DNA of 64,000 bases, taken from NCBI GenBank assembly GCA_964187785.1, contig OZ076409.1, forward strand, positions 48,920,001 through 48,984,000. Reading direction: 5' to 3'. Position 1 is the stretch's first letter. Each line of letters begins with the position of its first letter. The notes below the pieces were generated by a model. It ran no database searches. It saw only the letters and a list, made by a program, of their open reading frames with translations, and was not told where the DNA came from. The position numbers and the translations under genes were made by a program. Shown here piece after piece: positions 1 to 37,010 of the stretch. Source of the DNA: Amphiscolops sp. MND2022. Taxonomy: Eukaryota.

Positions 1-1219
1 TGCGAGGTTCTCTGCCTGGTGACGGGGCGTGTGAAACAAGAGTACGAAGGCTCTATTCCCGCGCTAGACGAACCATTGTATGCTTGCAAAGGTAACGGGA
101 AGAACAAACCACCATTGTTGTAGGTTTTAGTTATTTGTCGGAACTGTGATGATAATTAGAAGGCACTGCAACTACTGAATATTGGATCCTTTTGTTCCTG
201 AATTTGTTTTCATCTTGGAAGAGGTATTTTCAGTTGAGATTTTCTTTTTACCTTATTTTTTTCCGAAGAATTGTAGTGTTCTTTTTCTGAAGGTGTTTTG
301 TAACAGTATACGAAAAATATCACAGTGCCACTGCGCCTCTTTTGTTAACGTTTCAGTTAAAAAGAAACGTTTTCCGAGTTATAAGGTCAACTTCGGAGAA
401 TTTTTAACACTGTGAGATCTATTATAATTTGACTAAAAACCACTCTGAGCATATTTTTTGACTTTGAAAATATGACAGCCGCAGTCTGGCAATTTATGTC
501 CTTAATGGATGCGTCGACTATTGCTTTTGAAATATCTTATTTCAATAAACAAGACGCCCTCTAAGCACCGGGATATTTTCCACCCTGTTCGCCTTCACCA
601 ACTGAGTCATAGCTATTTTGGGAGGGAATAGGATCTAAAGAATAAGATCTAAAATTTAGTGATTTTAGATCTTATTCCCGCCCTGAAATTTTAGATCTTA
701 TTCCCTTTTTTGACTTTAGATATTGTTCCCGCTGTATGCTATTTTAGTTACTTGACTATTTTAGTTACTAGTAGCTATATAAAATAGTCAAGTAATCAAA
801 AGGTGGAGAGTGTGGAGATTTGGCAAAATTTGGGAAAAAAACGCGTCACAGATCATGATTTTCCTCCCCCATTTATAAAATGTGGGGTCGGAAAATAATA
901 ATTACCATCTCTGACTGTATTAATGCCTTCGGGCAAGGCTTGCTGCGCACATGTGTCTCACAGTCTATATATGTGCTGACTATACTCACCCTTTAGTTTA
1001 ACTTTTAAAACATGGAACGACTTGAAATCTTCAATCAATTAAATCAGAATCGGATACATAATTTTGTTAAGTTCGATAGTCGCAATCCGCGATACATGGT
1101 AACTTTGTGTAGTCAGTAGTACTACTGTGATGATACCTCGACTGAGTTTAAAGCTTAAACTCAAAAGCGCTTCCTTAAATTATGATAATTAGTAAAGGAA
1201 CACTAGCATAAAAAAGTGT

Positions 1220-1953
1220 TGTAGCGATTACCTATCGAGTACACGATTTCGAAAATTTCGATGAAAATTTCGTTCAAAGGACTATATCCCCTCTACTGAA
1301 AAGTCATATTCCGCTGGACGGCAGCGTGTCTTTATTCAAGTACCTGCCCACAGAATTGAAGAGAATTTGAGCAAAAGACTCCGGGCAGACCCCAACCGAA
1401 CGAGAAGACTGCAGAAAAACACGGCCGCTGTCAGAAAAAGACTCAAATTTCTGTCAAAACGGACTGAACTTTGTTCTAGCCAGTGCTTTCTTCAGCGAAG
1501 CGTTACAAGACGCTGTGATTACCGAAAATGAGTCAATTGGCTTGACCAAGCATCCGTGCTTGTGTCCCCGGCTAATTGCTGCCTCAAAAGTGCTAATTAT
1601 GTAGTAATTTTCGTATTTTCTTGTTGTAACAGCTCGTGAGCTACTTATTTCGATTTCCTGTGTAACTTCGAAAAAACTTGATTTTTCCTTTCCACCACTT
1701 GCATTTTTTAAAGGCTATCTAAGCGTTGGTTCCGAAGAAAAAGCGTAATGCGCGCTACTGTTAGCAATTACAGACTGGATCAGGCCGGCGAGCACTTCTT
1801 AAGAAGCGGAATCCTCCTCTGACGGGACATTTCTTACCCGAAGGAGGCAAAATGGACTCATGGCCATGGGCGCCTGTCCCGGGCAAATACCCATGCCATG
1901 TGTTCCTCCTGCTCTTATGGTTACGGCGACAATGGTGAGAGCTTGTCGTTACA
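1220..1953 (+). repeat. 5' LTR (734 bp)
   Basis: TG...CA ends. Matches 19732-20465; the only difference seen is cgatttcGaaaa vs cgatttcAaaaa. Confidence 0.97.
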
Positions 1954-1969
1954 TGGAGAACACATTTTA

Positions 1970-1986
1970 TGGCGACCACAGAGGGA
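1970..1986 (+). promoter_or_regulatory. Putative primer-binding site, tRNA-Arg-like
   Basis: TGGCGACCACAGAGGGA resembles the complement of a tRNA-Arg 3' end (TGGCGACCACGAAGGGA, recalled from memory). It starts 16 nt after the LTR end. Confidence 0.6.
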
Positions 1987-4345
1987 TCGCTTCGAAGTGC
2001 TTCCCTTAATGGTTTTAAAATAGCCGACCCTCTGGTGATTGACGCCAAGTACGACCCGACTCTGATAAAAAGAAGAGAGAAGCAGAGTTTTTCCACGTTT
2101 TTACCCTGTGTGTGTTATTGAAGACTTCAAGCCCGGTGGATAAAGGTAAATCTTGTAAAAAAGCGCTGTATGTTGTGATTTTCATGCTTTTTCAGTAGTT
2201 GACAGGTAACGATCGAAATAGCCTACCCTCTTAACGGGTCACTCATAAAATTGGTCTAGCAAGCCGTTGGAAGGCTGCTAGAAGTGTTAGCAGGTGTTTT
2301 CTAGCCTTTTTCAGCTTTTTATGACCAATGAAGTGAGTGTTGAGAAGAGGACGATCCTTGCTCAGACGAATCTTACAATCTGCCGAAACGAGTTATACGA
2401 CTCACCGGTCCCATTTCTCGTACAGGCAACCTAGAGGAATGAAATTTGGTGGAGACGTACTACAAATGCTGACGTGTCTAATGGTGCAACTCGTTTGTCT
2501 CTAGCTGTTCTGGGTGATGAGCAAAAAGAACGAGAAGACACGACTCGTCAGTCCGGGTTGTATAATATTTTTGAGTCAGGTTGAAAAAATTTTTTGGGTT
2601 GCTCAAAATTTTGTGTACGACCACTTGCCAATGTTTTTACGAGCCTTCTGTAACTAGGTGTGTGCTTTTGCACCTGTTTTGTGCGAAAAAAGTGCGTTTT
2701 TTCATGTATTTTCGACGAAAAGTGCCAAATTTGGCCATTTTGAGGCGAAACACCTACATGAGCGCGAGCGCTCTTGGTGCTAGCCACACACCTGCAGAAA
2801 TTAAATAAAAGTAGCTCAGGACTCTAATGAGTTCGCAAAAAACGCGACGAACTGCTCAAAGTTGCCCGAAAAGGCACTTAGTATAAATTTTGTGAGGAAA
2901 AAACCCCGTTTTTGGAAGACTGAACATTTTTAGCACTTTGAATTTGTGGGGGAACTTGTATAGAAGCTTTTAAACACCCCCGTATGGTTGCAATTAGGTT
3001 GGGGTACACCTGCCGGTACCCAACAATACCCATTTTGGTAATTATAACCACTACTTCTTGAAAAAAGTTACGAGAACTGTGATTTTGAGGTTTTTCTATA
3101 GTACTCTTAGAAGAAACCCAATTTGACTATTGACGAACACTTTTACGCTTAGAATAGCCCCCGGGCTATTATTTTCAGTTTATTCAGTAAATTTAACGAT
3201 CTACAGTGAAGACCGCATCCCAAAATTCCTTTTCAGTGCTGAGAAAAGTAGAAAAATGCACTGAAAAACCTCCATTTTCCTAAAATCCGGACTGTCTCTG
3301 AGCTAAGGTCGGGTCATTGATTCTTGGACCTTAGCCAAAAGGTGGTTGCATTTTCATAACCACCACTAAAAAGAACGCTACTGCCGAAAATTTGGTGGAC
3401 GTAACTTTCACCAAAGTCGAAAAAAGTTCTCTAACGTTTCAACTTCAGGGGACTGTAAAACTGCCGAAATAATCCAAAACTGACGGACTGTCGGTGCCTC
3501 GTGTTTAACGGGCACACCTAATCGAGGGTTTATCCTAGTACTACGAGTAGTGGGGCAACACGTAGGTCCCATTTTTTTCAGCCCTACCACTTTTTGAGGT
3601 GACCCTCTTAGCCAATTTGTGAAAAAAGTAGTCCAAAGTTGTGTTTTTTTGAGTGTTGTCCAAGTAAGGTCGGAACCTCAAATAAGCGTCCGCGCTTTCA
3701 TTTGATGGTTTCACCGGCATTGTACACGCTCATCGACTGTAGCTACAAAGTTTCGTGTCAATCCAACCGGTACTTGGTGAGAAAATAGAAAAAACGTACC
3801 ACTCAAAAAGTTGGGCATAGAGGGTAATTTTTCAAATTTTTCCTGAGTGATCCGAGTACCTTAATTGAAAAACGAGGTTGAATTGCCGTTCATTTCTATC
3901 ATTTGTACCAGATACTACGTTGTTTTGCAAATTTTGAGCCCGCTAGCTTTTTTTCAGTAAAGCACAATCTTGAAATAAGCATGAAAATTGATGTATCTTG
4001 GTGACTAAGGGTACCGAACGTCCGAATCAGCCTGAATCTTGAAATAAGAACCTTAGCTTAGATTTGATTCTGCTATCGTGTAGTACACCTACCACAAGGT
4101 CAGGTGGCCAATTTTCAAGTGTCTCCGACGATTAGACGTTGCGCTCGAGGCATCTTAGTCATTTTTAAAGAAACCTGAAAAACTCAAAAATTGTCTGAAA
4201 ACTCGATTGTTTGCGAATTAGCTGTTCCGCAAGCCCCAAACGCACGGTTTCCGGCCCCACACCACGGTATCAACGCGCGCTGTGTAAGTTTCACGCCGGT
4301 ACGACCCCTAGATTGATTTTTGACTTTTTCGAGACGTGTGAAATC

Positions 4346-5294
4346 ATGAAAACTAACAGTTTGCGTAACCTTTGGAATTCTATAACGAGAACATTAAGCC
4401 GCACGAACACCCGGCGATGCTCTAATCTTTCAAGAGGGGGGAGGAAGGACACGTCGCGACGCGCTGAAGCATCGAAAACACCAGACCCAACGGGGTGCGA
4501 GACAAATCTCAGTGCAATATCAGACCTGACCTCAGACCCCAGGGAGGAAGATTGGCCAACTGATGACAGTTTCGTTATGGAACCCGATTTTTCAGACCCT
4601 ATGTCAGACGACGCATCGGAGAAGTATCAGGCCAAGCCGGTTGCCAGGACTACCGATGATATCGGAGGTTCAGCTGACGAGACAGGAAGTCAGACCCATA
4701 CTTCCAAATGGTTGCTGGACTTACCCAGCGCTGTCACACCCTATGGTGTAGATGACACTGGAGCGTGGCCTAACTCCAACAAGACGAATGAAGATGAAGT
4801 AGAAATGAGCTGCCTGAATGCGACGGGGCAATTCAAAGCTCCAAGCACTGCGAGTGAGGGCACAGCTCATACCACAGAAGTACTCCAACAAATGTCCTAC
4901 ATTGGGGGCATGGATTATGTCAGGGCACGTCTTCAAGAAGCTACGGCTCCCCGAGCATCTGGGAAGGGTAAGCAAGTACGGCCCCCAGCTTTATTAGCAC
5001 TAACCAGTACTACAGTACCTCATGGGGATTCACGCTCATCCTCACCCTCATCAAAAGCTGCATCTGCCCGATCTTCGGCATATCGAGCCGTACATGAAGC
5101 AGCGAAAGCGCGCAAAGCTCTATTAGATGCTCAGATAGGCGTGAAGCAAGCTGCTTCACAACTGTCTGAGCGCAAGGCAGGCAAGGTGCGATAGAGAGCA
5201 ACAGTCAATAATGGAGGAAATAGAAGCCGTGCAGGTTGAATTGCGAACATCAACTGAGCGACAAGCGCAAGGACATTAAATTCAGGCCGCCCGA
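4346..5294 (+). pseudogene. gag: Disrupted N-terminal part of gag (disordered region, then coiled coil)
   Basis: ATG at 4346. The frame ends at TAG 5192, but the +1 frame continues as a coiled coil (QARCDREQQSIMEEIEAVQVELR...) through TAA 5277 into the 5295 ORF. Confidence 0.7.
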
Positions 5295-8200
5295 ATGGAT
5301 GCTATGGGCTATCGAATGGCCGAAATGAAAGACATGGTGGCCGAAAGAGAGGTGCGCATGGAAGCTCAAATGCAAGAGGTATGTTCACAGATACAAGCAA
5401 TGGGCACTATGTTGAAAAATATCCAACCTCGACCCGCACCAGCGAGCAACACTATCAAAGAGTTGCTGCAAGACACTGATGTATCACTGCCAAAACCCAT
5501 GAAAAGCGTCTCCCTCAAGCCAAAAGAGAGTTTGACGACTGCAACAAACCCATCTGGCTCTAAACAGCACTTGGCGAGGTACGCGCCTTTGCCACAACCT
5601 CTGGTCTCAAATGGAGAGGCCGCATCAACCTCGACGAAATTTATCCCGTCTGCGGTATCAACAAAATATATTCCACCCACGACCAAAGCTCACAAGAAAG
5701 AACCAACGTGCGAGGTGAGAACTATCGACACTTCAAGCATGGGTATCACCGGCCTGCGAGAGCCCACACGCACAAACGATCTAACTGAAGTCACCAGCAC
5801 CTTCCAAACAGCAAATGCAACTTTGGGAGAATCAGCTGCAGAATTCCAAACCGCGGACGATGGGTTGCCCCCGGGCAACCCATGCGCCAGCAGCACCCGA
5901 CGCCGAGAAGTGACTATCCCCGAGAACACCGATGACTCTGTCAACTCAACGCGAGGCAGCAGTATCCCGCCACCAGCTATCACTGAAGAAGCGCCTATAT
6001 CACCGGAGCAACTCAGGTTTACCGAGGCAATATCCAAGGCCATGTCCAAGGAACTGGCGCCGCTAATTGCTAATCGAGATCAAACTAGGGTCCGCCCTAC
6101 GGTGTACAAAGGCACTAATGATGGTACTGTCGATGGATGGCTTCCAGTGATGAAGCGATTTCTAGAAAGGGTGCATGCAAAATCACCAAAGATCGACAAA
6201 GCCTGGGCTATCATCGACCACCTGGAAGGGGAGGCGAGAAATTATATAATCAACAAATCTGAACCTGAACGAGACGAGCCCGACAAGGTATTCTCTCTCT
6301 TGGCCAGCAGGTTTGGAACCGGTGGAAACCGCATGCACGTCAGGCAAACCTTCATGTCTCGCGTCCAACAGGAAAAAGAGGATTGGATGCAATTCTTGGA
6401 CGCATTGGAAGGTCTGCGCACCCAAGGTTTCCCAGACGAGCCTATCACTACACGTCGTTATGAAATCCTGCAACGTTTTATAGATGGCGTCAATGACCCG
6501 ACGCTGCGACAAGAGTTGGCCGTGGTGTACGCTTCGGAGACATATTTGACTGAGCCACCAACTGTAGAATCCCTGAGATTCACCACGAGACAATTGCAAC
6601 GGCATCGCCCAAACACGTCAAAACCTTACGACCCAAGGTATGCAATGAGATCGAGGCCTAATCCTTTCGTGCCAGGGAAATTGGTTCACCCGGCACCAGG
6701 CCTACCACAAAATGTGCTGCCTCCAAACCAAGGACAGCGAGAGGCAAAGCCCCAGATGGCCCCACCAGGCCCTGCATCGGTAAAACAGGCTCCTGCACAG
6801 CAGCAACCAGCGAGAGTGATTCCCCAAGGAGCATGCTTCAACTGTGGACTACCGGGTCACTTTGCGAGGGAATGCCCACATCGAGACCTAGCAAGGAAAC
6901 CCGCGGCTCGCGCTGCACCCGAAGAGCGAGTGAACCTGTGTGAGAACAATGTGGCCTCTGCATGTTCTGGCCCCGTATTCTGTGTTAACTGTGGCATGAC
7001 CGAACACTCTGCATCACAATGCCAAAATGTTCCAGTACATGAGGATTTGGCCTACAGCCTCTGGGCTGAACAGCCATCTGCTTCTCAAACGATGAGTGAC
7101 AGTGAAATGGTACTCATGCTACGCCCTGCTGAAGCCGCTCACGTGGCGACGCCTCTTACCGTCACATGTGGCAAAATCCAAATCCAGACGAACCCAGAGC
7201 CAACTACTTTTGATCCCTCGGGACGCACTATCATGTCTGCCCGACTACTGTTGGCGGTCGAGAGAGAAACCCGCCCAGAACTCACCATAGACGCTTTGAT
7301 AGAAGAGATGACCGCAAACGAGAATTGCCGGCAACTGACTCTGCCCCAACGGGAAGAGTGGCAAGTGAAAGGTGTCACTTCGACGTATCATGCCTATTCT
7401 CCGATTCCAGTCAAAGTCTGCATAGATGGTGTTGACATGCGTTTTGGCGCCACTATTATTACTGATGCGTTTCCTCCTGGAAACTGCTTGGGACCGCAAG
7501 AGCTGCGCTGCTATAACATTGATGCTCAAGAACCAACTGGTGAAGCGAGAATCGATGAGCGTGCGTCGCTCGTGGTTTCATTCGTGGTTCCCGATGCTGC
7601 TCCCGTGCCATTACGTGGTCTAATAGACACTGGATCAGGAGTATCCATCCTCACCTTCTCAGCCTACAATCGAGTCGCCGTGCGCACTGGCACACTCTTA
7701 CGACCTTATGGTATTGACTTATATGCCGCGAATGGGAAGACGATCAAAACTTTTGGTCTAGCGGAGAAAGTCAAATTCCAATTGGGAGGCTATGAATTGG
7801 AAACTAACTTAGTGGTAGTTGATGACGCTATGGGAGTGGAAGACTTCCTCCTGGGCAGAAACTTCCTAAGAGCTTATCAGGTCTTGGTAGACCTAACCGC
7901 GATGAAGGTCATTGTCCGAGCTCCCTCTGAACCGGTGTGGTACCATGCCCACGCGCAAGAAAGTAACGAATCGCTCAATTCGTCGGTAGCGATTGCACAG
8001 GACGTAGTGTTGCAACCTTTTGAACGCGCGATACTACGCGCTAGATTGCTTGTAGACAACTTAGAACCTTTCATGTTTCGAACCGTGCTAATCAATTTTC
8101 AAACACCTAACCGAATGTTAAAAAACGCCATCTTTTTAGAGGACACCGTGGCGACCGTGGGGGAAACTGGTTTCCTTTACGTCAGTTTAGGAAATCTCAC

Positions 8201-11174
8201 CAGCAACGTACAGCGGATCAAAAAGGGCACCCTTTTGGGAACCGCGGTACCCGTGACGATGGTTCATAAAGCCATCCCCCAAATTGTCCCCGGACAATCA
8301 AATGAAACTCTGCAGTCAAATGCAAATTATGTTTGTAAAGTTTACGAACAGATGAACCTTGATTCTTCTTCTGAATATAGTTCTTCATCTGAATTTGAGT
8401 TTTTGTCCTCTACCGAACCGTCAGAACTAGGCTTGTCCGAGCGTGAAATAAAAAAACGAACCGATCCGGCGCTAATGGCTCCGATACCGGGCCCGGAAGC
8501 ACAACTCGACGAAGTGCGCGGTTTGTGGGGCTCGACCGCCAGCGACACGCTTAGTAAACTTTTGAACGAATTTGATGATTTGTTTATGAAATTCAAAGCC
8601 GACATTGGCAAATGTAAAATCGCTATGCACCCGGTGGAAGTAGAGCCAGGGGCTATACCTCACCGTGAAGGTGCAAGACGAATGTCGCCTGACAAGGCAG
8701 AACGTGCTAACCAAGAAGTCCGTGACTTGCTAGCTTTGGGAATGATACAACCTTCCCTATCCCCTTGTGCGAGTGGAATTGTTATGGTCAAAAAGAAGAG
8801 TGGTGAATTGCGATTCTGTTGTGACTTTCGACCACTTAATGAAGTGACCATCAAAGACGCTTATCCCTTGCCACGTATCGATGAGAGTCTATCCCGATTG
8901 GGCAAAGCCAAAATCTATACCAGTATTGACTTGGCATGGGCATTCTGGAAAATTCCTGTCCGAAAAGCCGATCGTCAAAAGACTGCCTTCGCTTGTGAAC
9001 TTGGGTTATTTGAGTGGCGGCGTATGCCTTTTGGTATGTGTAACGCATCAGCAACATTTCAACGGGCAATAGCGCGAGCGCTACAAAGAATAGTGAACCG
9101 CGAAGGAAGTATGGTTATGGCCTATATCGATGACATTGTGATTGCTACCAAGACCATCGAGGATCACATGGATAGACTATGCGAAGTATTCCAATGCCTG
9201 CGTGAGGCCGGCTTCAAAATGAGAGTCTCCAAGTGTGATTTTATGAAATCGGAGATCAAATATTTGGGCCGAGTTGTATCCGCAGATGGTATCAAGCCAG
9301 ATCCAAAAGCTGTCGCCAAGCTGAAAGATTGGGATATCCCGCGAACCAAAACTGAATTGCAAAGTTTCTTGGGTTTTGCCAACTACTATCGGGATTTTAT
9401 CCCATGGCATGCAAAGCTAGTTGCCCCTTTACATGCGATGACGGGCACAGGCTCTCCATTTTTATGGGGGGAGGAGCAGCAGCGAGCCTTTAACAGCATC
9501 AAAGTGGCACTAATGGAAGCCACTGCTCTGGCGCAACCCGACACTGAAGGCGAATTTGTTCTTGACACCGATGCTAGTGGTGTAGCTATATCAGGTATTC
9601 TTCACCAATGGCAAGGACCACCTGAGAGTCGCAAATTGCGACCGATTGTATTCGGAAGCAAAAAGTTAACCTCTACGCAAGCAAAGTATGGAGCCCCAAA
9701 ACTGGAAATGTACGCTGCATACTATTTCATCTTGAAAAACCACAGCTATCTCTGTCCACGGAAATTCACACTGAGGGTCGACAATCAGGCCCTATCCTGG
9801 CTAAAGACATATTCGATGGATCAGGCGATTATTGGTCGATGGATTATGGCTCTTGAAAAATATCACTTCGGTATTGAGCACCGACCCAGAACGCAACATC
9901 GAAATGCTGATGGTCTTAGCAAACGAACAAATGACTACAAAAAACACGAAAAGCAATTAAAGGGTTTTCCCGCAATTGCAGACAAATGGGATTTCCTATC
10001 ACAAGAGGAATACAACAAACTCCCGCTAGCCCCATGGTTTGATGTCCACGGACGTGTGATACCAAATCACCCAGAATTGCCTGCACACTTGCAGAGGTTG
10101 GCTAGCCAAAGTTCACCCGAAACCACAGTTGCCGCTCCCACGCGAAGGAGCGGACAAAGCAAACGAAGTGCGATCATGCGCGACGAAGCCATGAGAGCAC
10201 CCCTACCTACATTGCCAAAACCAGAATTGGCACTGCCTGCCGAACTTTATCCAGAGTATCCTGAGGATTGGTTGGAACTGACCGAGGAATATCAACGAGA
10301 CTATTTGCTCCCCACGCATGCTGCTAACGTACCATCAAGAACCACTTATCCACTGACGGAAAAGCAAGCAACTAGCACCGCACCAGAGCACGTAAAACAA
10401 GCCGCGTTTGTGGTAAACAGTATATCGATGGAATTGCATGAACATGCTAACACAGTCCATGGGTTGAAAGATCTACTACTGGCACAAAACCGTGACGTCC
10501 ACGTCTTGGCTATCAAGAAATTGGTAATGCAAGAGTCAATAGATCATGACATCTTTCCGGAAAATGTACGTGCCTTTGCCAAAAACTACCACAAACAGAA
10601 GAAGAACCTTCTGCTGGTAAACGCCAACGGGGTTTTGTGTGTAAAGTACTCCAAAAGTCAAAGAATTTTGCATGAACGCCCCTGCATGATAGTGATGCCC
10701 CAATTGTATCAGCATGAGATATTGTTCAAGGCCCACGACGCGATGGGACATCAGGGCATCGCGAAAGTCTTGGCCAGAATTCAAGAGCGCCACACTTGGC
10801 CAGGCATCCGCCGCACCATTGGACAATACGTCAGCCAATGTATCACTTGTCAACAAGTACGTGACAAGCCTGGTGATGTACGCTTTCACTTGAAAAATAT
10901 CCAAAGCGGCTATTTTAACGAGCTAGTCCAATATGACCACATGAAAATTTGTCCCTCTGACGATGGTAACACAGGGATCTTGGTTATTATTGATCATTTC
11001 TCTAAGCTCGCAGAAGCTGTGCCGTGCAACCACGATGAGTATGATGCAGCGACCACTTCAAAATTGTTGTTGCAGAAATGGTTTGCCCGCCATGGAACGC
11101 CGACGAGAATGCAGTCAGACAATGCTCAGCAGAGGCTCCCAACTTCACCGCGGCAGTATCTGCTGAGTTTATGA
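5295..11174 (+). CDS. gag-pol: Gag-Pol: capsid-like region, two CCHC knuckles, pseudo-protease, aspartic protease, dUTPase-like insert, RT, RNase H, integrase N-terminal half
   Basis: CFNCGLPGHFAREC (6834), CVNCGMTEHSASQC (6981), LIDTGS (7626), FLLGRNFL, LRFCCDFRPLN, YPLPRID, MPFG, YIDD (9123), VLDTDAS, NADGLS, HHCC zinc finger, IIDHFSK, SDN. Confidence 0.95.
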   Translation: MDAMGYRMAEMKDMVAEREVRMEAQMQEVCSQIQAMGTMLKNIQPRPAPASNTIKELLQDTDVSLPKPMKSVSLKPKESLTTATNPSGSKQHLARYAPLPQPLVSNGEAASTSTKFIPSAVSTKYIPPTTKAHKKEPTCEVRTIDTSSMGITGLREPTRTNDLTEVTSTFQTANATLGESAAEFQTADDGLPPGNPCASSTRRREVTIPENTDDSVNSTRGSSIPPPAITEEAPISPEQLRFTEAISKAMSKELAPLIANRDQTRVRPTVYKGTNDGTVDGWLPVMKRFLERVHAKSPKIDKAWAIIDHLEGEARNYIINKSEPERDEPDKVFSLLASRFGTGGNRMHVRQTFMSRVQQEKEDWMQFLDALEGLRTQGFPDEPITTRRYEILQRFIDGVNDPTLRQELAVVYASETYLTEPPTVESLRFTTRQLQRHRPNTSKPYDPRYAMRSRPNPFVPGKLVHPAPGLPQNVLPPNQGQREAKPQMAPPGPASVKQAPAQQQPARVIPQGACFNCGLPGHFARECPHRDLARKPAARAAPEERVNLCENNVASACSGPVFCVNCGMTEHSASQCQNVPVHEDLAYSLWAEQPSASQTMSDSEMVLMLRPAEAAHVATPLTVTCGKIQIQTNPEPTTFDPSGRTIMSARLLLAVERETRPELTIDALIEEMTANENCRQLTLPQREEWQVKGVTSTYHAYSPIPVKVCIDGVDMRFGATIITDAFPPGNCLGPQELRCYNIDAQEPTGEARIDERASLVVSFVVPDAAPVPLRGLIDTGSGVSILTFSAYNRVAVRTGTLLRPYGIDLYAANGKTIKTFGLAEKVKFQLGGYELETNLVVVDDAMGVEDFLLGRNFLRAYQVLVDLTAMKVIVRAPSEPVWYHAHAQESNESLNSSVAIAQDVVLQPFERAILRARLLVDNLEPFMFRTVLINFQTPNRMLKNAIFLEDTVATVGETGFLYVSLGNLTSNVQRIKKGTLLGTAVPVTMVHKAIPQIVPGQSNETLQSNANYVCKVYEQMNLDSSSEYSSSSEFEFLSSTEPSELGLSEREIKKRTDPALMAPIPGPEAQLDEVRGLWGSTASDTLSKLLNEFDDLFMKFKADIGKCKIAMHPVEVEPGAIPHREGARRMSPDKAERANQEVRDLLALGMIQPSLSPCASGIVMVKKKSGELRFCCDFRPLNEVTIKDAYPLPRIDESLSRLGKAKIYTSIDLAWAFWKIPVRKADRQKTAFACELGLFEWRRMPFGMCNASATFQRAIARALQRIVNREGSMVMAYIDDIVIATKTIEDHMDRLCEVFQCLREAGFKMRVSKCDFMKSEIKYLGRVVSADGIKPDPKAVAKLKDWDIPRTKTELQSFLGFANYYRDFIPWHAKLVAPLHAMTGTGSPFLWGEEQQRAFNSIKVALMEATALAQPDTEGEFVLDTDASGVAISGILHQWQGPPESRKLRPIVFGSKKLTSTQAKYGAPKLEMYAAYYFILKNHSYLCPRKFTLRVDNQALSWLKTYSMDQAIIGRWIMALEKYHFGIEHRPRTQHRNADGLSKRTNDYKKHEKQLKGFPAIADKWDFLSQEEYNKLPLAPWFDVHGRVIPNHPELPAHLQRLASQSSPETTVAAPTRRSGQSKRSAIMRDEAMRAPLPTLPKPELALPAELYPEYPEDWLELTEEYQRDYLLPTHAANVPSRTTYPLTEKQATSTAPEHVKQAAFVVNSISMELHEHANTVHGLKDLLLAQNRDVHVLAIKKLVMQESIDHDIFPENVRAFAKNYHKQKKNLLLVNANGVLCVKYSKSQRILHERPCMIVMPQLYQHEILFKAHDAMGHQGIAKVLARIQERHTWPGIRRTIGQYVSQCITCQQVRDKPGDVRFHLKNIQSGYFNELVQYDHMKICPSDDGNTGILVIIDHFSKLAEAVPCNHDEYDAATTSKLLLQKWFARHGTPTRMQSDNAQQRLPTSPRQYLLSL

Positions 11175-14122
11175 AAGCCGCCCAAGTGACCAAAGTAACC
11201 TCAACTGCTGGCCACCCCAAGACTCAAGGGTTGGTAGAGCGACAAAACCGAACGTTACTCACCCTACTGCGTGTATTCTGCTCTAGACGAATGCGTGATT
11301 GGGACCAGTATTTAGATGAAGTCATGGGTGCATACAACTCCACACGTCATGCCACTACTGGGTTCTCCCCGTATATGCTGACCAGAGGCATGGAAAAAGC
11401 TATACCCCTGACTTTCTTGTATCCCGAATTTGCAACTCAGTCATTCGAATCACACGAAGCCTATGTGGAACATGTGCTGGCTCGACAGCAAGAGATTCAT
11501 GACTTAGTCCGTCGTAACACGCATCAAGCCCAGCAGCGACAAAAGTTGAAATACGACCGAGCAATTCGTGCTAAAGCCTTTGAAGTGGGCGAACCTGTTT
11601 GGGTATTCTGCCGATACATTCCTCAAAAAGGATCTCCTAAATTGATGAGAGCATGGCGTGGTCCTCACAAAGTAGCACGAGTGCTACAAGAGGGACGCGT
11701 CTACATACTTGACACTGGTCAGAAAGTACATTTCGAACGATTGAAACCGCACCATGGTGGTCCAACAGAATGGGCAGCTGTTCCTGCGCATAACGGCGAG
11801 GTTGCTATCATCATGGACCCTGACCCAGAACAATCCCACGAGGAAGTGAGAGACGATGCCTCGCAACCTTCTTATCGTGCGGAGGAACCAATTTCAGAAG
11901 CCAGTAATGCCTCTTTGCCTTCTCGACAAAGACATTGGATGGACACACGGTTGCGCACACGCATGCGCGCTGGTGGCAGCCGCCTACATTATCAACAATT
12001 TGACTATTCTTCGACTGAGTCTGACGACGAACGTTCTGATGTACTCCTGTCGAGTGTTCAGGCTAATCCCGATGAGAGTGCTATCTTGTCATCACATGTG
12101 GATGAACCTGCGCCTATTCCCGAAATACCAATATCACCACTGCCTGCTATGGAGGCTCTATTCTCAGAGAATGAAGCAGTGCCCGACGTCTTGGATATCG
12201 CCCCAAATCCTACTATCCACGCACCCACCAAAAGTGCCGGCACCTCTCTGACCGGTACATCCGCCCCATTATTGACAAATCCATCTCTTACGGATATGTT
12301 GAGTAACTTTCCCATTTGGCCCCTAATCGATGACAATGTTCTCAACCCCACCTTAGACGACAACGGTGCTGAAGCACCAATGACCAATGACGAAAAGGGA
12401 TTTATTCCCCCTACGACAGTTCCCACCAACAACAACGCAGCTACTACCACGAAACTCTCCAATGCTCCTAGAGGGCATAGACCGCGGGGACGTCCGCCAG
12501 GCAGAGCGAGGCCGCGAGCCTCGCTGCCACGTGGCCACCAACAGAGAGGTGCTATTAGAGGCGCTCGCAAAAGAGGCCGTCCCAGAGGAAGACCTCCTCG
12601 TACAACACACGCCAGACCTAACACCTCTACCCGTGTTCGTCGCACTCCATCTGTGGACACTGACTCTTCTGCCCCTAGCGCGGCGGTTACCTCAGATCAA
12701 GCAGCACCGCCAGAATCAACCAACGCTCGCTATGGCCTGCGACGCTATCGTATTCCCAGATATCGTTGCGGAACCTGTGGCCTACGAGACTGCGAATGTA
12801 ACTACATGGTCCACGCGGGCTTCCCAATTAAACCCCAGGGAGTCCTGCTAGCACGTGAACAGGAGAAATCGCTTCCAAGCGGCACGGTTGACCGTTTGGT
12901 TATTCGAGCCGAGAAGACTTATACTGGGCTACAACGCAGCGACACTCCATATCCTGTGGACTATATCCTATCCAAAATGAAAGATTCTACGATAGCAAAG
13001 GCCCCGTGCCCAAGGTTCAAGGAGTGGACCTATGATCTTATTGGTTTGGAATTCACATTACCTATCACTGTTCCCCCCTTGCCTACAAATATTGCTTTTG
13101 GTCCTTTCAACTATGAACGAGAGCCTATCCAAATGGTACGCTGTATTCCTGCTGACCTTTTGTATGACAAGTACAATATCACCGCAAAACCAGGAGACGT
13201 TTATCAGCCTGCAACCAACTGGTGGCTACTACTTACGGCCAAACAAGTGTCCGACCTGGTTCATCCCAATAACTTGAACACCTGTCTGGAGAGTTTGCGG
13301 ACAATGGCCTCTCCTGATAGAATCACTTGTTTCCACACCATAGACCTGTATCGTGGTAAAATTAAGTTTGAATGGTGGCTGGAACTTATCATAGCAGTCT
13401 TATCGAACTTTTCACGAATCCGATTCCTGGACGAATGGACACACTCATTTCCTAGTCCTGTATCACTCCAATCAGCCCTACACGCACTGGATACATGGTC
13501 CAGGGCTAACATTGATAATCAATCGTTGCCGCGATCTGTGTGGCAAGACTTGGGCGCCATTAAAGGCCTCCTTCCGAACACATGTGACGATGCTCTCTCC
13601 AATGACCCCGGACGAGAGTTAGTATACCATGGAGCCGTGAGACCTCAATTGGTTGACTATGTGCAGTATGCCAATACGGACTTCCTGCAAACTCCCCATC
13701 ATATTGTTTTATGTTGTCCCGCAAACCTTGAGACTAATTCTGCCGCTCTTCGTTACGTCATTCGTGAGCATGGTGCAGATGCAATCTTTCAACTTCGACC
13801 AGAGGTTGGCAATATTGTGACGCTACCCACATCTTTGATAGACGGCCATCCTCAGACTATCAACCTTTTAATCACACGAGCTACACCTCGCTGCCCTATG
13901 CTCGCTGATATTCTCTTTGGATGTCTTGATCATTTGAAAACGTTACTCGAGCGCTTAGAGGCGATAGAAATACACTTTGCCATCATTGATCCTGAGCGCC
14001 CAATACGTAATCTTTTCGACTTTTATACCTGTTTGATGGACGTATTCGCTGACACGCCCCTGACCGTCGTTCTTCACGATCGCGTTTACGTATCTATTGC
14101 AAGCGTCGCTAGCTTTCCGTAG
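11138..14122 (+). CDS. pol: Continuation of pol after an 11-bp insertion: integrase C-terminal half, disordered linker, AT-hooks, Cys cluster, two macrodomain-like repeats
   Basis: Removing 11127-11137 restores SDNAPNFT. Then HPKTQGLVER (catalytic E), AYNST.H.TTGFSPY, WRGPH (GPY/F) and VHFERLK. GRPRGRP motifs at 12480-12600. Confidence 0.9.
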   Translation, partial: PNFTAAVSAEFMKAAQVTKVTSTAGHPKTQGLVERQNRTLLTLLRVFCSRRMRDWDQYLDEVMGAYNSTRHATTGFSPYMLTRGMEKAIPLTFLYPEFATQSFESHEAYVEHVLARQQEIHDLVRRNTHQAQQRQKLKYDRAIRAKAFEVGEPVWVFCRYIPQKGSPKLMRAWRGPHKVARVLQEGRVYILDTGQKVHFERLKPHHGGPTEWAAVPAHNGEVAIIMDPDPEQSHEEVRDDASQPSYRAEEPISEASNASLPSRQRHWMDTRLRTRMRAGGSRLHYQQFDYSSTESDDERSDVLLSSVQANPDESAILSSHVDEPAPIPEIPISPLPAMEALFSENEAVPDVLDIAPNPTIHAPTKSAGTSLTGTSAPLLTNPSLTDMLSNFPIWPLIDDNVLNPTLDDNGAEAPMTNDEKGFIPPTTVPTNNNAATTTKLSNAPRGHRPRGRPPGRARPRASLPRGHQQRGAIRGARKRGRPRGRPPRTTHARPNTSTRVRRTPSVDTDSSAPSAAVTSDQAAPPESTNARYGLRRYRIPRYRCGTCGLRDCECNYMVHAGFPIKPQGVLLAREQEKSLPSGTVDRLVIRAEKTYTGLQRSDTPYPVDYILSKMKDSTIAKAPCPRFKEWTYDLIGLEFTLPITVPPLPTNIAFGPFNYEREPIQMVRCIPADLLYDKYNITAKPGDVYQPATNWWLLLTAKQVSDLVHPNNLNTCLESLRTMASPDRITCFHTIDLYRGKIKFEWWLELIIAVLSNFSRIRFLDEWTHSFPSPVSLQSALHALDTWSRANIDNQSLPRSVWQDLGAIKGLLPNTCDDALSNDPGRELVYHGAVRPQLVDYVQYANTDFLQTPHHIVLCCPANLETNSAALRYVIREHGADAIFQLRPEVGNIVTLPTSLIDGHPQTINLLITRATPRCPMLADILFGCLDHLKTLLERLEAIEIHFAIIDPERPIRNLFDFYTCLMDVFADTPLTVVLHDRVYVSIASVASFP

Positions 14123-14344
14123 AACTTTTTTTTTCCTTTCGCTCTTTTTTTGTTTTTTTTGTCCGCTCGATTAAGTTTAGTGAATCGACACGGAGTTTAC
14201 TTGAAACAAATACGTTACCTTTTCTTTTAATGTTAATTTGTGATATCCTATTACTTCCCCTGGTATTACCCTTAAAATGACCTATGGTGTTACCCTACTA
14301 TCAAGTGTGCTACAATCGACCTGCAGTCTTTCAGAGTTTCCGTC

Positions 14345-17300
14345 ATGAACCAAGGTGACGATGAAAGCAACTACGTCCCTCCAAGGTCTTCAGATGACTC
14401 TCCTGCCTTGGGGCAACGCGTTTACGACACTGCGCGTGTCCAGCGTACCCCACAAATTGCTTTCATTCGAGACAGACTCGACCAAGGTCTGTCGCCAGCT
14501 ACAGTAGCCGGGGTGGCGGCGATCATAGCCCAGATGGAGTCACAAGTGCAAGCCCCTATGCTGACGATATCTATCACTTCAGGCTTTCCTGGGTTCCAGC
14601 GATCTATGACGTTCCAAGATGGAGTGTGGTACGGCCATGATCTCACACATCACTTTACGGATGATCGTGCAGCGATCTCATACAGTCCTGCGAATGGCGG
14701 AGTCCATCAGACCAGATCTCTACAGATCCCCTCTTGCCCGCCTCCACCTCCACCGCCACCTCCTGTATCGATGCCACAAACAGTAGTGCGTGCAAGCACT
14801 TCTGCTCCTGCAGTACCTAACTTGTCCAATCAACCAATGGCAGAACAAGCAGTTATCTCAGCACTGCAAGCAGTAGCTATCAACCCTAATTACGCTGATT
14901 TCATGCGATCCATGGAGCAGTGTTGGCCTGAACTACGCCAAATTGCTCTGCCCACTGTCACTATTCGCAACGAAAACGCCACTTTGAACCAAACAAGTCA
15001 AGATGCTATCACTATTCCTCACGTCAATCCTCAGTCTGAACAGCCAGGGCACTCCCGCACCGTGACTGTAGAGCGCAGTCGTTCGCCTTCCCGCTCTTCT
15101 CAAAAGGGGGGAGGAGAGAGCCGCCCTGCCTCCAGAAAACGCAATGACCGTTCTCCAACAAGAATGAGTGCTCAACAACCACTAACTGCTCGTGACAGCC
15201 CCTCGAGCAAGCCACCACCCGACAAAAGGATCTCCAACGAGAAGGCCACAACCTCCAAGACGCCAAACCAAACAAAATCAAAAGTGTCGGAAGCATCCGT
15301 GCTTCCCTCACCCCAGCCACAACCAAACGCAACAGGCGAACAACAAGGACTGCCGCAGCCACCATCCACGCAGTCTACAACACGCGAGTCGCTGGCTCAA
15401 CGAGCGATTCCTAAGCCTTCTACATCAAGACAGCCACAAACGGAGCAAACTGTGGGTTATCAAGGCACCCCTGAACCGCAGCGAACTGTCAAGGACATAA
15501 TGGGTGATTACCCAGGATTGAAGGTAACCAACAGTGGTCCAACTGGAACCCCACTCCGCAAACAGGCAATTCAACACCCAACTAAGAGGACCTTTACAAA
15601 GCAACCGACGTACCTGAGTCCAATGCAAAACACGAAGGGCACGCTGATCACCAAGGACTCCCGACGTATCTGGGAATCGGCAGTTATTGTATCACCCGAA
15701 TGGCTGTTTGAAAAGAACATGTGTCCTCCGAATGACGAAGAGCATGCGAAATTGAAGAAGGCGAATGTACCTGTATTCATGAATCGTCCAATTCGCCCCG
15801 ACCACACCCCTACTAATGAGCCGCCATGGCTAGGGAAGGCAATGAATATTCTGCCAAACGTAGAAGACAACTACTTGGACGCCCTCAACATTGACCTTCG
15901 TGGGCAATTCGCTGACCGATACTTCCTCAACGCTGGAGAGACCTTCGAGATCAACCCGCGGTACGCCCGTGACCTCGAAGCCCAGCTACCAATGCCAAAA
16001 GAAAGGTTGCAGCGTGCGCGCTTCGCCTTACTTGTAGACTCGACCTTCCTCAAAAATATCCCTATTGACAATGTGCTGTCAGACGTGATGGTTTTCACTC
16101 TACCGCTGTCACGTATCCCCGAGATGGCTGAAGTGTTGGTCACCATGTTTGACCCCGAGATGACGGGGACCTTCAAAGAGCCACCCCCACGCAGAGTGAT
16201 CATCAGTAACGTTTTCGATCACATGGCCTGTGAAGGACTAATGGCCCAGATCGCGAACGTTGAAATCATAAATCCAACTCCAGCACAGCAAGCAACAGTA
16301 CGCAACGCAGCACTGAATGTGGCCCGAGCCATGGAAAAAGCCCAAAATATCCTAAAGAATAAACTCAACGTGCCAGTCTTGTTTGTAACACCCCCAGGTT
16401 TCTGCCAGTGGCATCCCGCCTTGCAGAGATTTATCTATATGGTAACAGAAATTTGCAAATGTAGAGAAATAGACTTTGCGATCTGCGCGCCCAATATGCG
16501 GATCAGCTCCGACGACTTGCGTCCCTCCTGGCTTTCCTACATGGGGTACGTTGCCTCAGTGTCTAAAGTGCTACAGTCAGTGGAAAAGACAGGGAACGCG
16601 CAGCTGACAATCGATGATGCCATCTATTTTGATCACGGCACTCGTATGGGCTTGTTAGTATTCAACAACAACGGAGAAAGGCGAGTCCCAGAACCTAGCA
16701 CGGCTGAATGTGAGGCAATCCGCCTGAATAACTGGATGGAGCGCGCGCGCTCCTCCGGTGGAAAGACTTGCATTAAAACTGATCTTGCGGAAGTCACCGC
16801 CATAATGAGCAAAATCCCCAGCGACCGAGAAGTGGAACGAGCCATCCCGCGAGTTCAATTTGCCCAGGACCTCACTATTGACCAACTATCAGTGGGAATG
16901 AGGTATATCGCTGCAAAATTGACGAGCGAGACTCAGGCTGAAATCCAAGCCTTCAGCAGCACCTACGACGCTTGGTACCAGCGGCTGCAAACTACCACCG
17001 TAGCAGACATTGCAAAAGAACTTGGGATGTCAACCGACCAATTTGCCATCTGTTTGGGATTGGGTTGGAGTCCCGATGTTATTCGAGTTGAGTTCGGCTT
17101 GGACGAACACTGGTTGATCGAAATCAGCAAGATTATCGGCACCATGCAAGTAAACGAACTCTTTGCACTGATAATCACCTTCGGGCAGAAACGCTTCGTA
17201 GCTGGCCCAATTATGATATTGACCGACCTGGTTACTGAGTGTAATCTGGAATGGCTATTTTCGTGTTTAGTGATTGCGCGAGGCAATATCTCAGGCCTCA

Positions 17301-18715
17301 CCGCCTTAGCCAAGCTGCTACAACGAAAAGACGCTCAGGATTATCCCGCTCACCTGGAGCGCATGACAACTTCGTTATATCACTGGATATACTGCAGTCT
17401 GGTCTTTGCCTCGGGACTTTTCGTGGGCGTAGATAAGCACCAACCATTATATGACGGACGTCAGCTGGTGACCGAGGTAGCTGGATTTCTGACACCTAAC
17501 CAGCTGGCAGATTTCACTTTGGCTGAAGTCGAAGACCTTGTACCGGTGTTAGCACCCGTGCTAACTCCGATATTTGGCCCAACCGGGATACTTCGCTATC
17601 CCACCAAGCCTCTGCGACTCGCCTGGGAGACACCAACAGTATCCATTCTGACTTTTCTGAAGAATGTAAAACCGTACAACTATCAGCAGATGCTTGAACG
17701 CGGGCTGTTCCTGCTAATACCCCGCATGTCTACCACCATAAAGAACGAAACGCAGCAGGACGAAAACCTGGCCGGCATTCTCAAAGCCCGGACAAAGAAG
17801 GCGTGCCCTTTACCTCGCGAATACGGCCCGGTGAATTGGTACAATTCGCCCCTAGATCACCATGGAATCCCACAGCGATTCAATTGGAGTTTCGCACACC
17901 TCAGGAAGTACGTGACCGAATGCGTACAAGCCATGGGCGGTCACACAAACCAGGGGTATAATTTTCAGAAGATCAAGCTTCCAGCCAGGTACTGGCGAGG
18001 ACCCATCGGCTATGCGCGGGCTAAGCCAATCAGCATGGTTGAGAAAGGCTTTCATGAGCAGTACGCCTATCGCGATCACTACAAACTAGGCGTGTGGATG
18101 TGAAGGACCCTGGAGGAACGCCAAGGGCGCCTAAAAGTCTTGATCATCCCTCCACAGACAATGCCAGTTTGGAATCCAGAGGCGAGGGTCACTATGGGAA
18201 GCGACATGCCAGCGGAGACCTGCTACCATGTCATGGAACTGCTGAGTGATCCCCTCGGACCAGAATGGGAAGCCTCCAGGCAAATTATAGAACATGAAAA
18301 CAGGGACAACTGGTCCAGAGCCTGCGGGCTCTGGGGCCGACCTGATCTACGCCCGAAACTCAGTGCCAAGCAGAAACGACCCATTGCCACCCGCAATAGA
18401 CCGCTAGATCTACCACACCTGTTTAATGCCAGTAGATTGGATGTGCAGATCCCAACCTCCACGTCGACCACAAGTTCTGCCAATGTTAGCGGCTCAGCCA
18501 ATGCAGCGCAAGAACATTCGCCAGAAGTCTCAACTCCCGTAGCTGCAGAAAATGGCCCTAGTGGCTCAAACACGACTCCCAGGACCCATGAAACTGCCAG
18601 CGCCGAACCAAGGCCAGTCCTGCGAGAAGGAAATGTGCGAAGAGGATCCCTGTCCGAATCACAACCGAAAGCCGACGTCTCCCCCAGAGCGCGTCACTTA
18701 TCCGCCACCCAGTAA
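14345..18715 (+). CDS. Extra ORF3 in env position (about 1,456 codons, one internal TGA at 18101): Pro/Ser/Gln-rich N-terminus, SGNH-hydrolase-like domain, helical C-terminal region
   Basis: The 1252-aa ORF and the 18140-18715 ORF share a frame and are separated only by a single TGA. Both lie inside the LTR pair. No signal peptide is visible. Confidence 0.8.
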
Positions 18716-19721
18716 AACAAACCTAACATTATTGCCATTCTGTTTTAAACTTCAATAGTCCTGTGGTAAATGAACCTTTGCGAAACCTCATGGTTTCAAC
18801 CACTGTTGTTGCTAAACTTTGATTTTGGAAGTGCCAATTGGTCATGGGTAAAAACCTCCAAGTGGAGATGAAGCCCCCGGGCTTCATCCTCCTCATTATT
18901 CCGTTTTGGGACCGGCAACCCAACCATAAAACTACGCCTTTGCCTTGCCTTAGTTAAATGCAATATTCAATTTGCAATTTGTGTTTGCAGTTAGTGCTTT
19001 TTCAAGCTACCTTATGCTACCTTATGGATGCGCTGTGCGCACTCCGTGCTCTGAATTTTCGGTGCTATTACACCCTTTTAGTTACTAGTTATTGTTTACA
19101 CTGTTGCTATTGTCGAAAAAGACAAAAGGAAAAAAATGAAGGAAAAGGAAACAAAAGGAGAGAGATTAGAAATGGATAGAATAAAAAGATTGATGGACCT
19201 CGACCATTGTTTTTTCTTTGAGTTACCTGATAGGATTGAGAGTAAGTCTCGCAAAAGAAATTTTAAATTGACTGTACTTATTGGTTGATTTTATGGCAAC
19301 TGCTTATCAAAAGAACTTTTATCAAACGCCAAGCAGTGCGAAGCTCCCGAGCTTCGGAAAATAAATTTTGAACTGTCATGTGATGGTCGTTGACCTTAAA
19401 ACAAGTTTTAACACTAACGGCAATAAAAATTTTTTTGTATGAAAGGCCGAAAAGAAATTTTAACGCCTGAATTGCTCACGACAGGCTACAAAATGTAATA
19501 ACCTTGCCGTATAAGATTTGTATACGAAGTTGTATTGATTTGATCAAAATGCAGCAACGCTGGGTCAAAAACACTTCCACGAGGCCAACTTTACGACGTC
19601 CCAATGAACTGCCCAGCGCTACTTGATGTGCACTCTACCTCCTCAGTGGGACATAGATGACCCTGGGTAAAGACTCGATGATGCCAACCCACACTTGACG
19701 GGGACGTCAAGACTAGACCCC

Positions 19722-19731
19722 GGGGAGTGTA
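19722..19731 (+). promoter_or_regulatory. Short polypurine tract (GGGGAG + TGTA) before the 3' LTR
   Basis: Purine run immediately upstream of the 3' LTR, preceded by the hairpin CTTGACG-GGGA-CGTCAAG (19694-19711). Confidence 0.6.
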
Positions 19732-20465
19732 TGTAGCGATTACCTATCGAGTACACGATTTCAAAAATTTCGATGAAAATTTCGTTCAAAGGACTATATC
19801 CCCTCTACTGAAAAGTCATATTCCGCTGGACGGCAGCGTGTCTTTATTCAAGTACCTGCCCACAGAATTGAAGAGAATTTGAGCAAAAGACTCCGGGCAG
19901 ACCCCAACCGAACGAGAAGACTGCAGAAAAACACGGCCGCTGTCAGAAAAAGACTCAAATTTCTGTCAAAACGGACTGAACTTTGTTCTAGCCAGTGCTT
20001 TCTTCAGCGAAGCGTTACAAGACGCTGTGATTACCGAAAATGAGTCAATTGGCTTGACCAAGCATCCGTGCTTGTGTCCCCGGCTAATTGCTGCCTCAAA
20101 AGTGCTAATTATGTAGTAATTTTCGTATTTTCTTGTTGTAACAGCTCGTGAGCTACTTATTTCGATTTCCTGTGTAACTTCGAAAAAACTTGATTTTTCC
20201 TTTCCACCACTTGCATTTTTTAAAGGCTATCTAAGCGTTGGTTCCGAAGAAAAAGCGTAATGCGCGCTACTGTTAGCAATTACAGACTGGATCAGGCCGG
20301 CGAGCACTTCTTAAGAAGCGGAATCCTCCTCTGACGGGACATTTCTTACCCGAAGGAGGCAAAATGGACTCATGGCCATGGGCGCCTGTCCCGGGCAAAT
20401 ACCCATGCCATGTGTTCCTCCTGCTCTTATGGTTACGGCGACAATGGTGAGAGCTTGTCGTTACA
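19732..20465 (+). repeat. 3' LTR (734 bp)
   Basis: Direct repeat of 1220-1953. Confidence 0.97.
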
Positions 20466-20513
20466 TGTAGTTTGATGAAAAACGTCCGGAAGCTGTTCAG
20501 TCATCTCCAATGA

Positions 20514-23875: not shown

Positions 23876-24239
23876 CTAAAACGAACAAGTTCCTTGTTGT
23901 ATATTCATCATTAACAATCAGTACCCCATATCAGCAATCCAACGCTGCAAGAAATTTCATGCGTGCAAGATTATGGAAAATCAGAATCATAGCCAATAAT
24001 GGAAACCTGCATAATGTAGAACATTTGGTAAGAGCAAAAAAAGTTTTTTGAGGCTGATTTTATGATTAACCATGGTTTTCATCAGCGGTCACATGTCAGA
24101 ATTCTATTAATCCATAAAATGTTTCGAAATTAAGAATTCTGAGAATGGAATGGTATGATACGCTTGGCACGATCATGCAAGCATTGGTAAAATCATGTCA
24201 GGTCATAGTAACATCTTTGACAATGAGTTTCCATGGATC

Positions 24240-36810: not shown

Positions 36811-37010
36811 NNNNNNNNNNNNNNNNNNNNNNNNNNNNNNNNNNNNNNNNNNNNNNNNNNNNNNNNNNNNNNNNNNNNNNNNNNNNNNNNNNNNNNNNNN
36901 NNNNNNNNNNNNNNNNNNNNNNNNNNNNNNNNNNNNNNNNNNNNNNNNNNNNNNNNNNNNNNNNNNNNNNNNNNNNNNNNNNNNNNNNNNNNNNNNNNNN
37001 NNNNNNNNNN
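36811..37010. other. Assembly gap (200 N)
   Basis: Run of N. Confidence 1.

Follow-up and report, generated by a model that had tools for sequence, protein, structure and literature searches.

A 19.2-kb gypsy-like long terminal repeat (LTR) retrotransposon occupies positions 1220–20465 of a 64,000-nucleotide stretch of DNA from Amphiscolops sp. MND2022 (assembly GCA_964187785.1, contig OZ076409.1, positions 48,920,001 to 48,984,000 of the forward strand), here called the window, in whose numbering all positions are given. It probably represents a recent insertion, by now a little decayed, of an autonomous family that makes up a lineage in this animal genome together with at least three sister families. 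Two direct repeats of 734 bp, which differ at one position, end in TG..CA, and are each flanked by TGT, form its LTRs, and between them lie a leader (1954–4345; 2,392 bp), coding frames at 4199–5194, 5280–11174, and 11045–14122, and the frame of a third open reading frame (ORF3; 14276–18103) with an in-frame continuation (18104–18715), followed on the 3' side by non-coding DNA of about 1 kb. Gag-Pol runs from an ATG at 4346 to a stop at 14120–14122 (about 3,258 codons) and is disrupted in the window copy by frame changes near 5170–5210 and 11115–11130. Since two natural proteins from public assemblies (P0098 and P0094) each span one of these breaks, and since the sister families have single open Gag-Pol frames of 3,111–3,220 amino acids, Gag-Pol can be read as one frame, with breaks private to the window copy. 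Similarly, ORF3 (14345–18715) matches the natural protein P0001 (1,456 amino acids) over its full length (96%) and has an in-frame stop at 18101–18103 in the window copy. The initial annotation, made from the letters of the window alone, had proposed near-identical 734-bp LTRs, a 2.4-kb leader, a gag-pol frame of ∼3,250 amino acids once repaired, and a third reading frame of ∼1,450 amino acids, and these four claims all stood.

Copies of the element were sought in the 1.07-Gb assembly that contains the window. The LTR query returned 2,053 first-look candidates genome-wide, 40 of which were scored and were all 99–100% identical, and the ORF3 core returned 3,196 (144 scored, 94–100% identical). 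Six further copies could be followed end to end; they are 19.19–19.23 kb long, collinear, and 97–99% identical, with 0–2 mismatches between paired LTRs and with breaks of their own in each copy. The sister families B, C, and D measure 18.9–19.2 kb, with LTRs of about 710–726 bp and an identical gene order. A chimera or misassembly, to which the two frame breaks and the stop in the window copy could be attributed, is refuted by the six collinear copies and the three sister families, is further contradicted by matching proteins in independent public assemblies, and retains practically no probability; the absence of ORF3 and the integrase tail, set beforehand as the refuting observation, was seen in none of these copies or families. 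An internally deleted copy of 12.4 kb that kept ORF3 lies on contig C11 (18542490–18554916) of the same genome, and one copy of family C (L035) has a rearranged LTR. The combined pattern of LTR end, spacer, and primer site occurs 4,541 times in the genome against 936 for a reversed control, giving about 3,600 5' junctions above control, and the lineage may account for at most about 6% of the 1.07 Gb, were all of these junctions full length.

In a tree of 28 reverse transcriptase-RNase H (RT-RH) rows, drawn from this lineage alone with no named references, the families separate. Synonymous sites are saturated between families (proportion of synonymous differences, pS, 0.68–0.96), and the aligned modules are still 27–89% identical; by this comparison, all modules including ORF3 appear to be under purifying selection. 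Several observations weigh against so general a statement, including a noisy within-family ratio of nonsynonymous to synonymous differences (pN/pS 0.10–0.99 in six non-independent pairs), values of about 1 for the reverse transcriptase and the dUTPase-like segment, and low-complexity and pre-SGNH segments of ORF3 that cannot be aligned to families C and D. Searched at E 0.001, a set of 1.84 billion representatives contains 829 relatives of ORF3. Two distant ones, P0284 (1e-60) and P0322 (1e-40), were not found in the genome of the window when used as queries, which hints at other hosts for ORF3 relatives. No relatives outside the source genome were found in JGI metagenomes with P0313 as the query, nor in IMG/VR with the macrodomain 2 alignment as the query.

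An exact 3-bp target-site duplication (TSD) flanks 32 of the 34 scorable insertions in the four families, where the chance of agreement is 1 in 64 per insertion. All seven full copies and all three solo LTRs of the window family have it (five of the eight single-LTR loci proved to be one end of an element and are not scorable), as do 2/2 and 9/10 insertions of family B and 1/1 and 10/10 of family D; the one insertion scored in family C has one mismatch, and two further copies could not be scored. Among 20 scripted pairs none matches at 4–7 bp, and TG..CA ends occur in all four families; the 3-bp TSD first noted for the window copy holds. The result is tempered by the drawing of the TSD pairs from the youngest LTR hits. 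The 20 TSDs comprise 17 different triplets and show no target preference, which counts against the preferred reading of the element given below. In the published account, a 3-bp TSD is described as unique to Troyka, with 4–6 bp elsewhere (Kojima 2025, PMC12440569), and a set of 13,566 plant elements is reported with TSDs of 4–6 bp (PMC6317226); the element finder behind the plant survey may not report shorter ones.

The polyprotein otherwise resembles that of Ty3, which ranks first among solved relatives (E 5.7e-110, against 7.2e-55 for the next distinct protein). Its domain order is protease, reverse transcriptase, RNase H, integrase, and its RT-RH, which aligns to Ty3 at 260.8 bits, is closest to Ty3 among solved retroelement enzymes. 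Likeness to Ty3/gypsy elements (Metaviridae) extends to TG..CA LTRs, a tRNA primer site, Gag knuckles, and a GPY/F-like motif. The differences are the length of 19 kb, a 3-bp TSD where 4–6 bp is typical (PMC12440569), a primer site 15–16 nt off the LTR, an integrase tail of about 800 amino acids with two predicted macrodomains, and a non-env ORF3. Membership of Ty3/gypsy is judged from sequence to be probable, short of proof, given an atypical TSD and a comparison with named clades that was made by description rather than on a reference tree. A rival reading places the element in a superfamily of its own, not in Metaviridae but next to Troyka, with which it would have in common the 3-bp stagger and TSD, the single Gag-Pol frame, and the lack of env. 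This is very unlikely given the TG..CA termini, canonical knuckles, GPY/F-like motif, and Ty3-aligned RT-RH, all of which are unlike Troyka as described. The Troyka elements belong to the Kuafuorterviruses, mostly 5–6 kb long (PMC11673190), which are described as having a 3-bp TSD, a single Gag-Pol, and no env (PMC12440569, PMC11673190). Identity with Troyka itself was rejected on five characters: as described, Troyka has CG..CG ends, LTRs of 100–400 bp, an interior of 1.5–7.7 kb, a CX2CX8-10HX4C knuckle, and no GPY/F motif (PMC12440569), whereas the element here has TG..CA ends, LTRs of 734 bp, an interior of 17.8 kb, CX2CX4HX4C knuckles, and a GPY/F-like motif.

The accessory modules had no match in Pfam, PHROGs, or PDB sequence searches, and those of Gag-Pol upstream of the reverse transcriptase are faint. 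A tandem protease had been proposed; the candidate duplicate aligns with the protease at a profile-profile E of 0.0067 over 37 columns, and this first copy has no DTG motif. The proposed dUTPase-like insert similarly retrieves seven dUTPase chains in 17 PDB matches, at E 0.75–1.3 and behind thioesterase hits. No catalytic motifs are visible in either segment, and both proposals are weak. The capsid-like region of Gag has a weak PNMA match (E 0.052, in the sister protein P0153). The linker between RNase H and integrase (9900–10650), of ∼250 amino acids, is 37–55% identical between families and has no family match.

A tRNA primer-binding site (PBS), absent from the initial annotation and identified in the follow-up analysis, lies 16 nt past the LTR and is complementary at 18 of 18 nt to the 3' end of the host tRNA-Arg(TCG). 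Family B also uses a tRNA-Arg primer, with a spacer of 15 nt, and families C and D match tRNA-Lys(TTT) with a spacer of 16 nt; fourteen more loci picked by the pattern have spacers of 15–16 nt with a T-rich run at the end. A PBS directly at the LTR end was considered and rejected, as its TGG start is not retained in the other families. Plant Athila elements have shorter spacers between LTR and primer site. The lineage's two primers, tRNA-Arg(TCG) and tRNA-Lys(TTT), are both numerous in the genome: the first occurs in long tandem arrays on contig C9 from 57.54 Mb (273 pattern matches genome-wide) and the second in an apparent gene array on contig C7 from 5.22 Mb (729 pattern matches).

Within the leader, a block of ∼860 bp is 74% identical to family B and 58–76% identical in ten non-redundant relatives, with 6 of 16 loci left out of the alignment (two at 141–292 columns, one at 550, and three redundant). 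Its RNA folding (z −1.81) and pairing do not rise above controls: the 84 pairs show 34 two-sided changes, slid controls show 17–34, and 80 of 300 random sets score as high as the actual pairing. Most of the two-sided compensatory changes fall in the hairpins at 3231–3266 and 3302–3335 (10 and 8 non-independent cells, counted in ten relatives). A structured LTR RNA, also part of the earlier description, was not borne out: Rfam gave 0 matches, the region 1690–1990 folds at z −1.54, which 10 of 100 shuffles match, and only 1 of 12 LTR windows reaches z −3.6, with family D likewise at an equal offset and family B with none.

The integrase tail contains AT-hook cores (three in the window copy, one or two in sister proteins) and, further on, two domains that by predicted structure are TARG1/DarG-class macrodomains, in agreement with the AT-hooks and tandem macrodomains first described. 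The model of 12701–14119 matches TARG1 in Foldseek at E 4.4e-6; macrodomain 2 aligns with TARG1 (Z 12.9, root-mean-square deviation 2.7, 123 residues) and DarG (Z 11.6), and macrodomain 1 with the S. coelicolor macrodomain 5e3b (Z 10.8, root-mean-square deviation 2.7, 111 residues). A wide structure search gave Z 11.7 and 11.6 for the TARG1/DarG class, with unrelated folds at 8 or below; macrodomain 1 reached only Z 7–7.5 there. Compared with one another, the two halves show a weak similarity (E 0.0042 across 114 columns, where seven control pairs gave 0.076–0.76). An ESM Atlas match of the tail to Macro (11%), being below 0.9, is a lead only. Caution is called for by the moderate quality of the model (mean predicted local distance difference test score, pLDDT, 62.9, from 19 sequences) and by the fact that a shared macrodomain fold by itself shows no function.

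What the tail may do is best weighed from its residues and its position. The fold of both domains is what they share with TARG1, DarG, and SCO6735, and the differences are an identity of 11–13%, the tandem arrangement, the fusion to integrase, and catalytic residues that are not evidently retained. An invariant Arg stands in 7/7 sequences near the place of the expected catalytic Lys, in an approximate register set by the TARG1 Lys motif, and Gly-rich loops were not seen in the alignment of these seven sequences. Active erasers that serve counter-defence, stripping ADP-ribose off element proteins or single-stranded complementary DNA (cDNA), would accord with hydrolases (TARG1, DarG, and SCO6735) as the top fold matches, and with the silencing of L1 through KAP1 ADP-ribosylation by SIRT6 (PMC4695847). 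TARG1 catalysis involves Lys84 and Asp125 and that of DarG Lys80, and SCO6735 is reported to be active with neither (PMC9411070), so altered residues are compatible with eraser activity. The low identity, the invariant Arg, and the missing loops argue against such erasers, which are rated as rather unlikely. A chromatin-reading tether that is not an enzyme has about an even chance, and it is favoured over the eraser since the tail sits where chromoviruses have their chromodomain. In chromoviruses, integrase carries a reader-type domain at its C-terminus that is assumed to guide insertion (PMC6317226); the domain there is a chromodomain, whereas macrodomains and AT-hooks would take its place here. 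A scaffold that lost ligand binding takes up the remaining probability. The location at the end of integrase suits a targeting role no less well than counter-defence.

ORF3 has no signal-like N-terminus and no env-family match by Pfam and hydropathy scan, and its maximum hydropathy is 1.73 in the window copy and 2.1–2.3 in two sister proteins; an env-bearing gypsy identity was rejected on the same searches, which found neither a signal peptide nor a transmembrane anchor. An alignment of 82 rows, judged by eye, shows an SGNH-like series consisting of a hydrophobic strand followed by Asp-Ser (16037–16042), a Pro-containing second block, Asn-x-x-Asp, and Asp-Leu-Arg-Pro in place of the expected Asp-x-x-His, with the Arg at 16520; conservation is 98% for Asp, 86% for Ser, 95% for Asn, and 86% for Arg. 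Counting against the assignment, the segment has no library match in Pfam or PDB sequences. A VWA-like ESM Atlas match of ORF3, below 0.9, is a lead only. Behind the segment lies a putative helical region. The SGNH fold is rated as fairly likely, with catalytic activity much less so; the SGNH ORF3 first proposed is borne out in part, by a motif series in which Arg stands where the catalytic His is expected. A lipid-binding SGNH esterase is described in ORF1 of a long interspersed nuclear element (LINE), and SGNH proteins without catalytic activity, Oskar among them, are known (PMC3905857). ORF3 may be a non-catalytic scaffold of SGNH fold for particle or RNA localisation rather than an envelope, a role given a little less than an even chance. 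The alternative that ORF3 substitutes for env, moving particles from cell to cell through lipid binding, draws on its env position, its selection in all families, the hydrophobic stretches of 2.1–2.3 in the two sister proteins, and the binding of phospholipids and liposomes by the retrotransposon SGNH esterase (PMC3905857), and is improbable for the window family, which has no signal peptide, clear transmembrane helix, or env-family match.

Under the preferred reading of an autonomous gypsy-like family, RNA from the 5' LTR would be translated as one Gag-Pol frame, as in the standard Ty3/gypsy cycle, and the product would be cut by the DTGS protease and packaged. Reverse transcription would be primed by tRNA-Arg (tRNA-Lys in families C and D), and since priming starts 15–16 nt beyond the LTR, the U5 end of the linear cDNA should carry the spacer as a 15–16-bp extension, which would be trimmed before joining. 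Integrase would then join both ends with a 3-bp stagger, the tail with its AT-hooks, Cys cluster, and two macrodomains would bind to AT-rich DNA and to chromatin partners, ADP-ribosylated or otherwise, and ORF3 would scaffold particle or RNA localisation. A bolder reading, rated less likely than not, is an undescribed clade of giant LTR elements, expanding at present, with a second independent route to the 3-bp stagger, trimming of 15–16 bp of cDNA, tandem TARG1/DarG-class macrodomains that read or erase ADP-ribose, and, where env would be, an ORF3 that encodes a pseudo-esterase resembling Oskar; if true, it would link host ADP-ribosylation to the targeting of LTR elements or to defence against them. 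TSD length mirrors intasome geometry, and the 3-bp TSD is the hallmark of one proposed superfamily (PMC12440569), so a TG..CA lineage with a 3-bp stagger would break the link to Troyka and give a natural comparison. In addition, a displaced PBS retained despite a switch of tRNA between families predicts unusual end-processing, and macrodomains at the chromodomain position would make ADP-ribose as a guide or opponent of insertion testable. The features of the window copy are collected in Table 1.

Table 1. Features of the retrotransposon copy in the window.
Feature	Position	Strand	Basis or remark
5' TSD (TGT)	1217–1219	+	
5' LTR, 734 bp, TG..CA	1220–1953	+	imperfect terminal inverted repeat
Spacer from LTR to primer site, 16 nt	1954–1969	+	T-rich tract at its end
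Primer-binding site	1970–1987	+	18/18 nt complementary to 3' end of host tRNA-Arg(TCG)
Non-coding leader	1988–4345	+	
Conserved non-coding leader block	3161–4022	+	cross-family comparison
Gag-Pol, about 3,258 codons	4346–14122	+	
Gag capsid-like conserved region	6000–6520	+	56–72% identity between families
Two CX2CX4HX4C zinc knuckles	6834–7022	+	
Candidate degenerate protease-like duplicate	7101–7529	+	weak; no DTG motif
Aspartic protease	7545–7919	+	DTGS at 7626
dUTPase-like segment	7935–8279	+	weak
Reverse transcriptase core	8787–9269	+	YIDD at 9123
RNase H	9540–9863	+	
Integrase, zinc-binding domain and core	10698–11671	+	split by frame change
GPY/F-like WRGPHK motif in integrase	11654	+	aligned with Ty3 motif
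Three AT-hook cores (R/P-GRP)	12485–12595	+	downstream of low-complexity linker
CxxC-x4-CxC cluster, putative zinc site	12767–12799	+	conserved
Macrodomain 1	13088–13438	+	predicted fold
Macrodomain 2	13673–14086	+	predicted fold
ORF3, 1,456 codons	14345–18715	+	not env-like
SGNH-like segment of ORF3	16001–16720	+	motifs by eye
Short purine tract	19722–19729	+	2 nt upstream of 3' LTR, common to the families
3' LTR	19732–20465	+	
3' TSD (TGT)	20466–20468	+	

No tandem repeats were found in positions 1–21000 of the window and no tRNA gene in its 64 kb. Elsewhere, a decayed Pao/BEL element lies at 38413–48433, with direct repeats separated by about 8,766 bp, Peptidase_A17 matches at 45733–46331, and an integrase zinc domain at 46878–47351. 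A 2.4-kb element at 26443–28848, with terminal inverted repeats of about 360 bp that are 98% complementary and with no long open reading frame, is likely a non-autonomous DNA transposon, and one dispersed repeat family with internal subrepeats of ∼105–128 bp recurs at 24239–24667, 37983–38420, 48912–49695, 57894–58211, and 60019–60831. Exon-like frames on the minus strand with a TRPM2-like match (50070–50735; E 1.3e-7) and a PBC-domain match (61528–61908; E 2e-4) suggest host genes and, together with the Pao/BEL relic, point to an animal host. An assembly gap of 200 bases spans 36811–37010.

The initial annotation had suggested a distinct lineage with host-interaction or counter-defence modules; a distinct gypsy-like lineage whose accessory set is fixed across the families is supported, and several of its items turned out weaker or precedented, with counter-defence as one hypothesis among others. 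No description of the joint set of TG..CA ends, 3-bp TSD, PBS displaced by 15–16 nt, and tandem integrase macrodomains was found in a comparison confined to the literature, and no integrase macrodomains in LTR elements were found there, with subscription journals and supplements outside its scope. The family could already be catalogued (Repbase, Dfam, GyDB) or lie inside a described animal Gypsy clade whose curators know these traits; given its abundance, it would be present in whatever repeat library is made for the source genome. TARG1-like domains occur inside some arthropod gypsy Pol database annotations. Giant size, a dUTPase, and an SGNH ORF3 each have precedents as well (PMC6431247, PMC5408684), and the size is no record. 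Nevertheless, a prior catalogue entry or a place in a described clade is considered rather unlikely, as Kojima (2025), a Repbase author, treats the 3-bp TSD as Troyka-only (PMC12440569), literature on macrodomains and LTR elements gave nothing beyond general reviews, and the relatives looked up bear no element name. At least one animal survey used an LTR-distance window (2.5–11 kb) that 19-kb elements exceed (PMC6238403), and the available text on one acoel genome gives abundant Gypsy and no element anatomy (PMC6451197).

Two named elements resemble this architecture in part. Vesta of bdelloid rotifers is described with a dUTPase positioned between protease and reverse transcriptase, a GDSL/SGNH ORF3 in place of env, and TG..CA ends; its LTRs of 159–551 bp, against 734 bp here, led to its rejection as the same element, its SGNH catalytic residues are intact, whereas the ORF3 of ∼1,450 amino acids here, judged by eye, has Arg at the His position, and the term macrodomain has 0 occurrences in its description (PMC5408684). 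Similarly, the planarian Burro/GYPSM1 is reported to be giant, to be present in thousands of copies, and to encode a multi-domain polyprotein with a dUTPase-like segment between protease and reverse transcriptase; its reported MATH, BIR, BCL2, ankyrin, and env-like parts gave no Pfam match here, and the available part of the review mentions no macrodomain (PMC6431247). Identity with Burro was rejected on size and polyprotein length, as Burro exceeds 30 kb and has a polyprotein of 4,900–5,100 amino acids (PMC6431247), whereas the present element has 19.2 kb and ∼3,250 amino acids.

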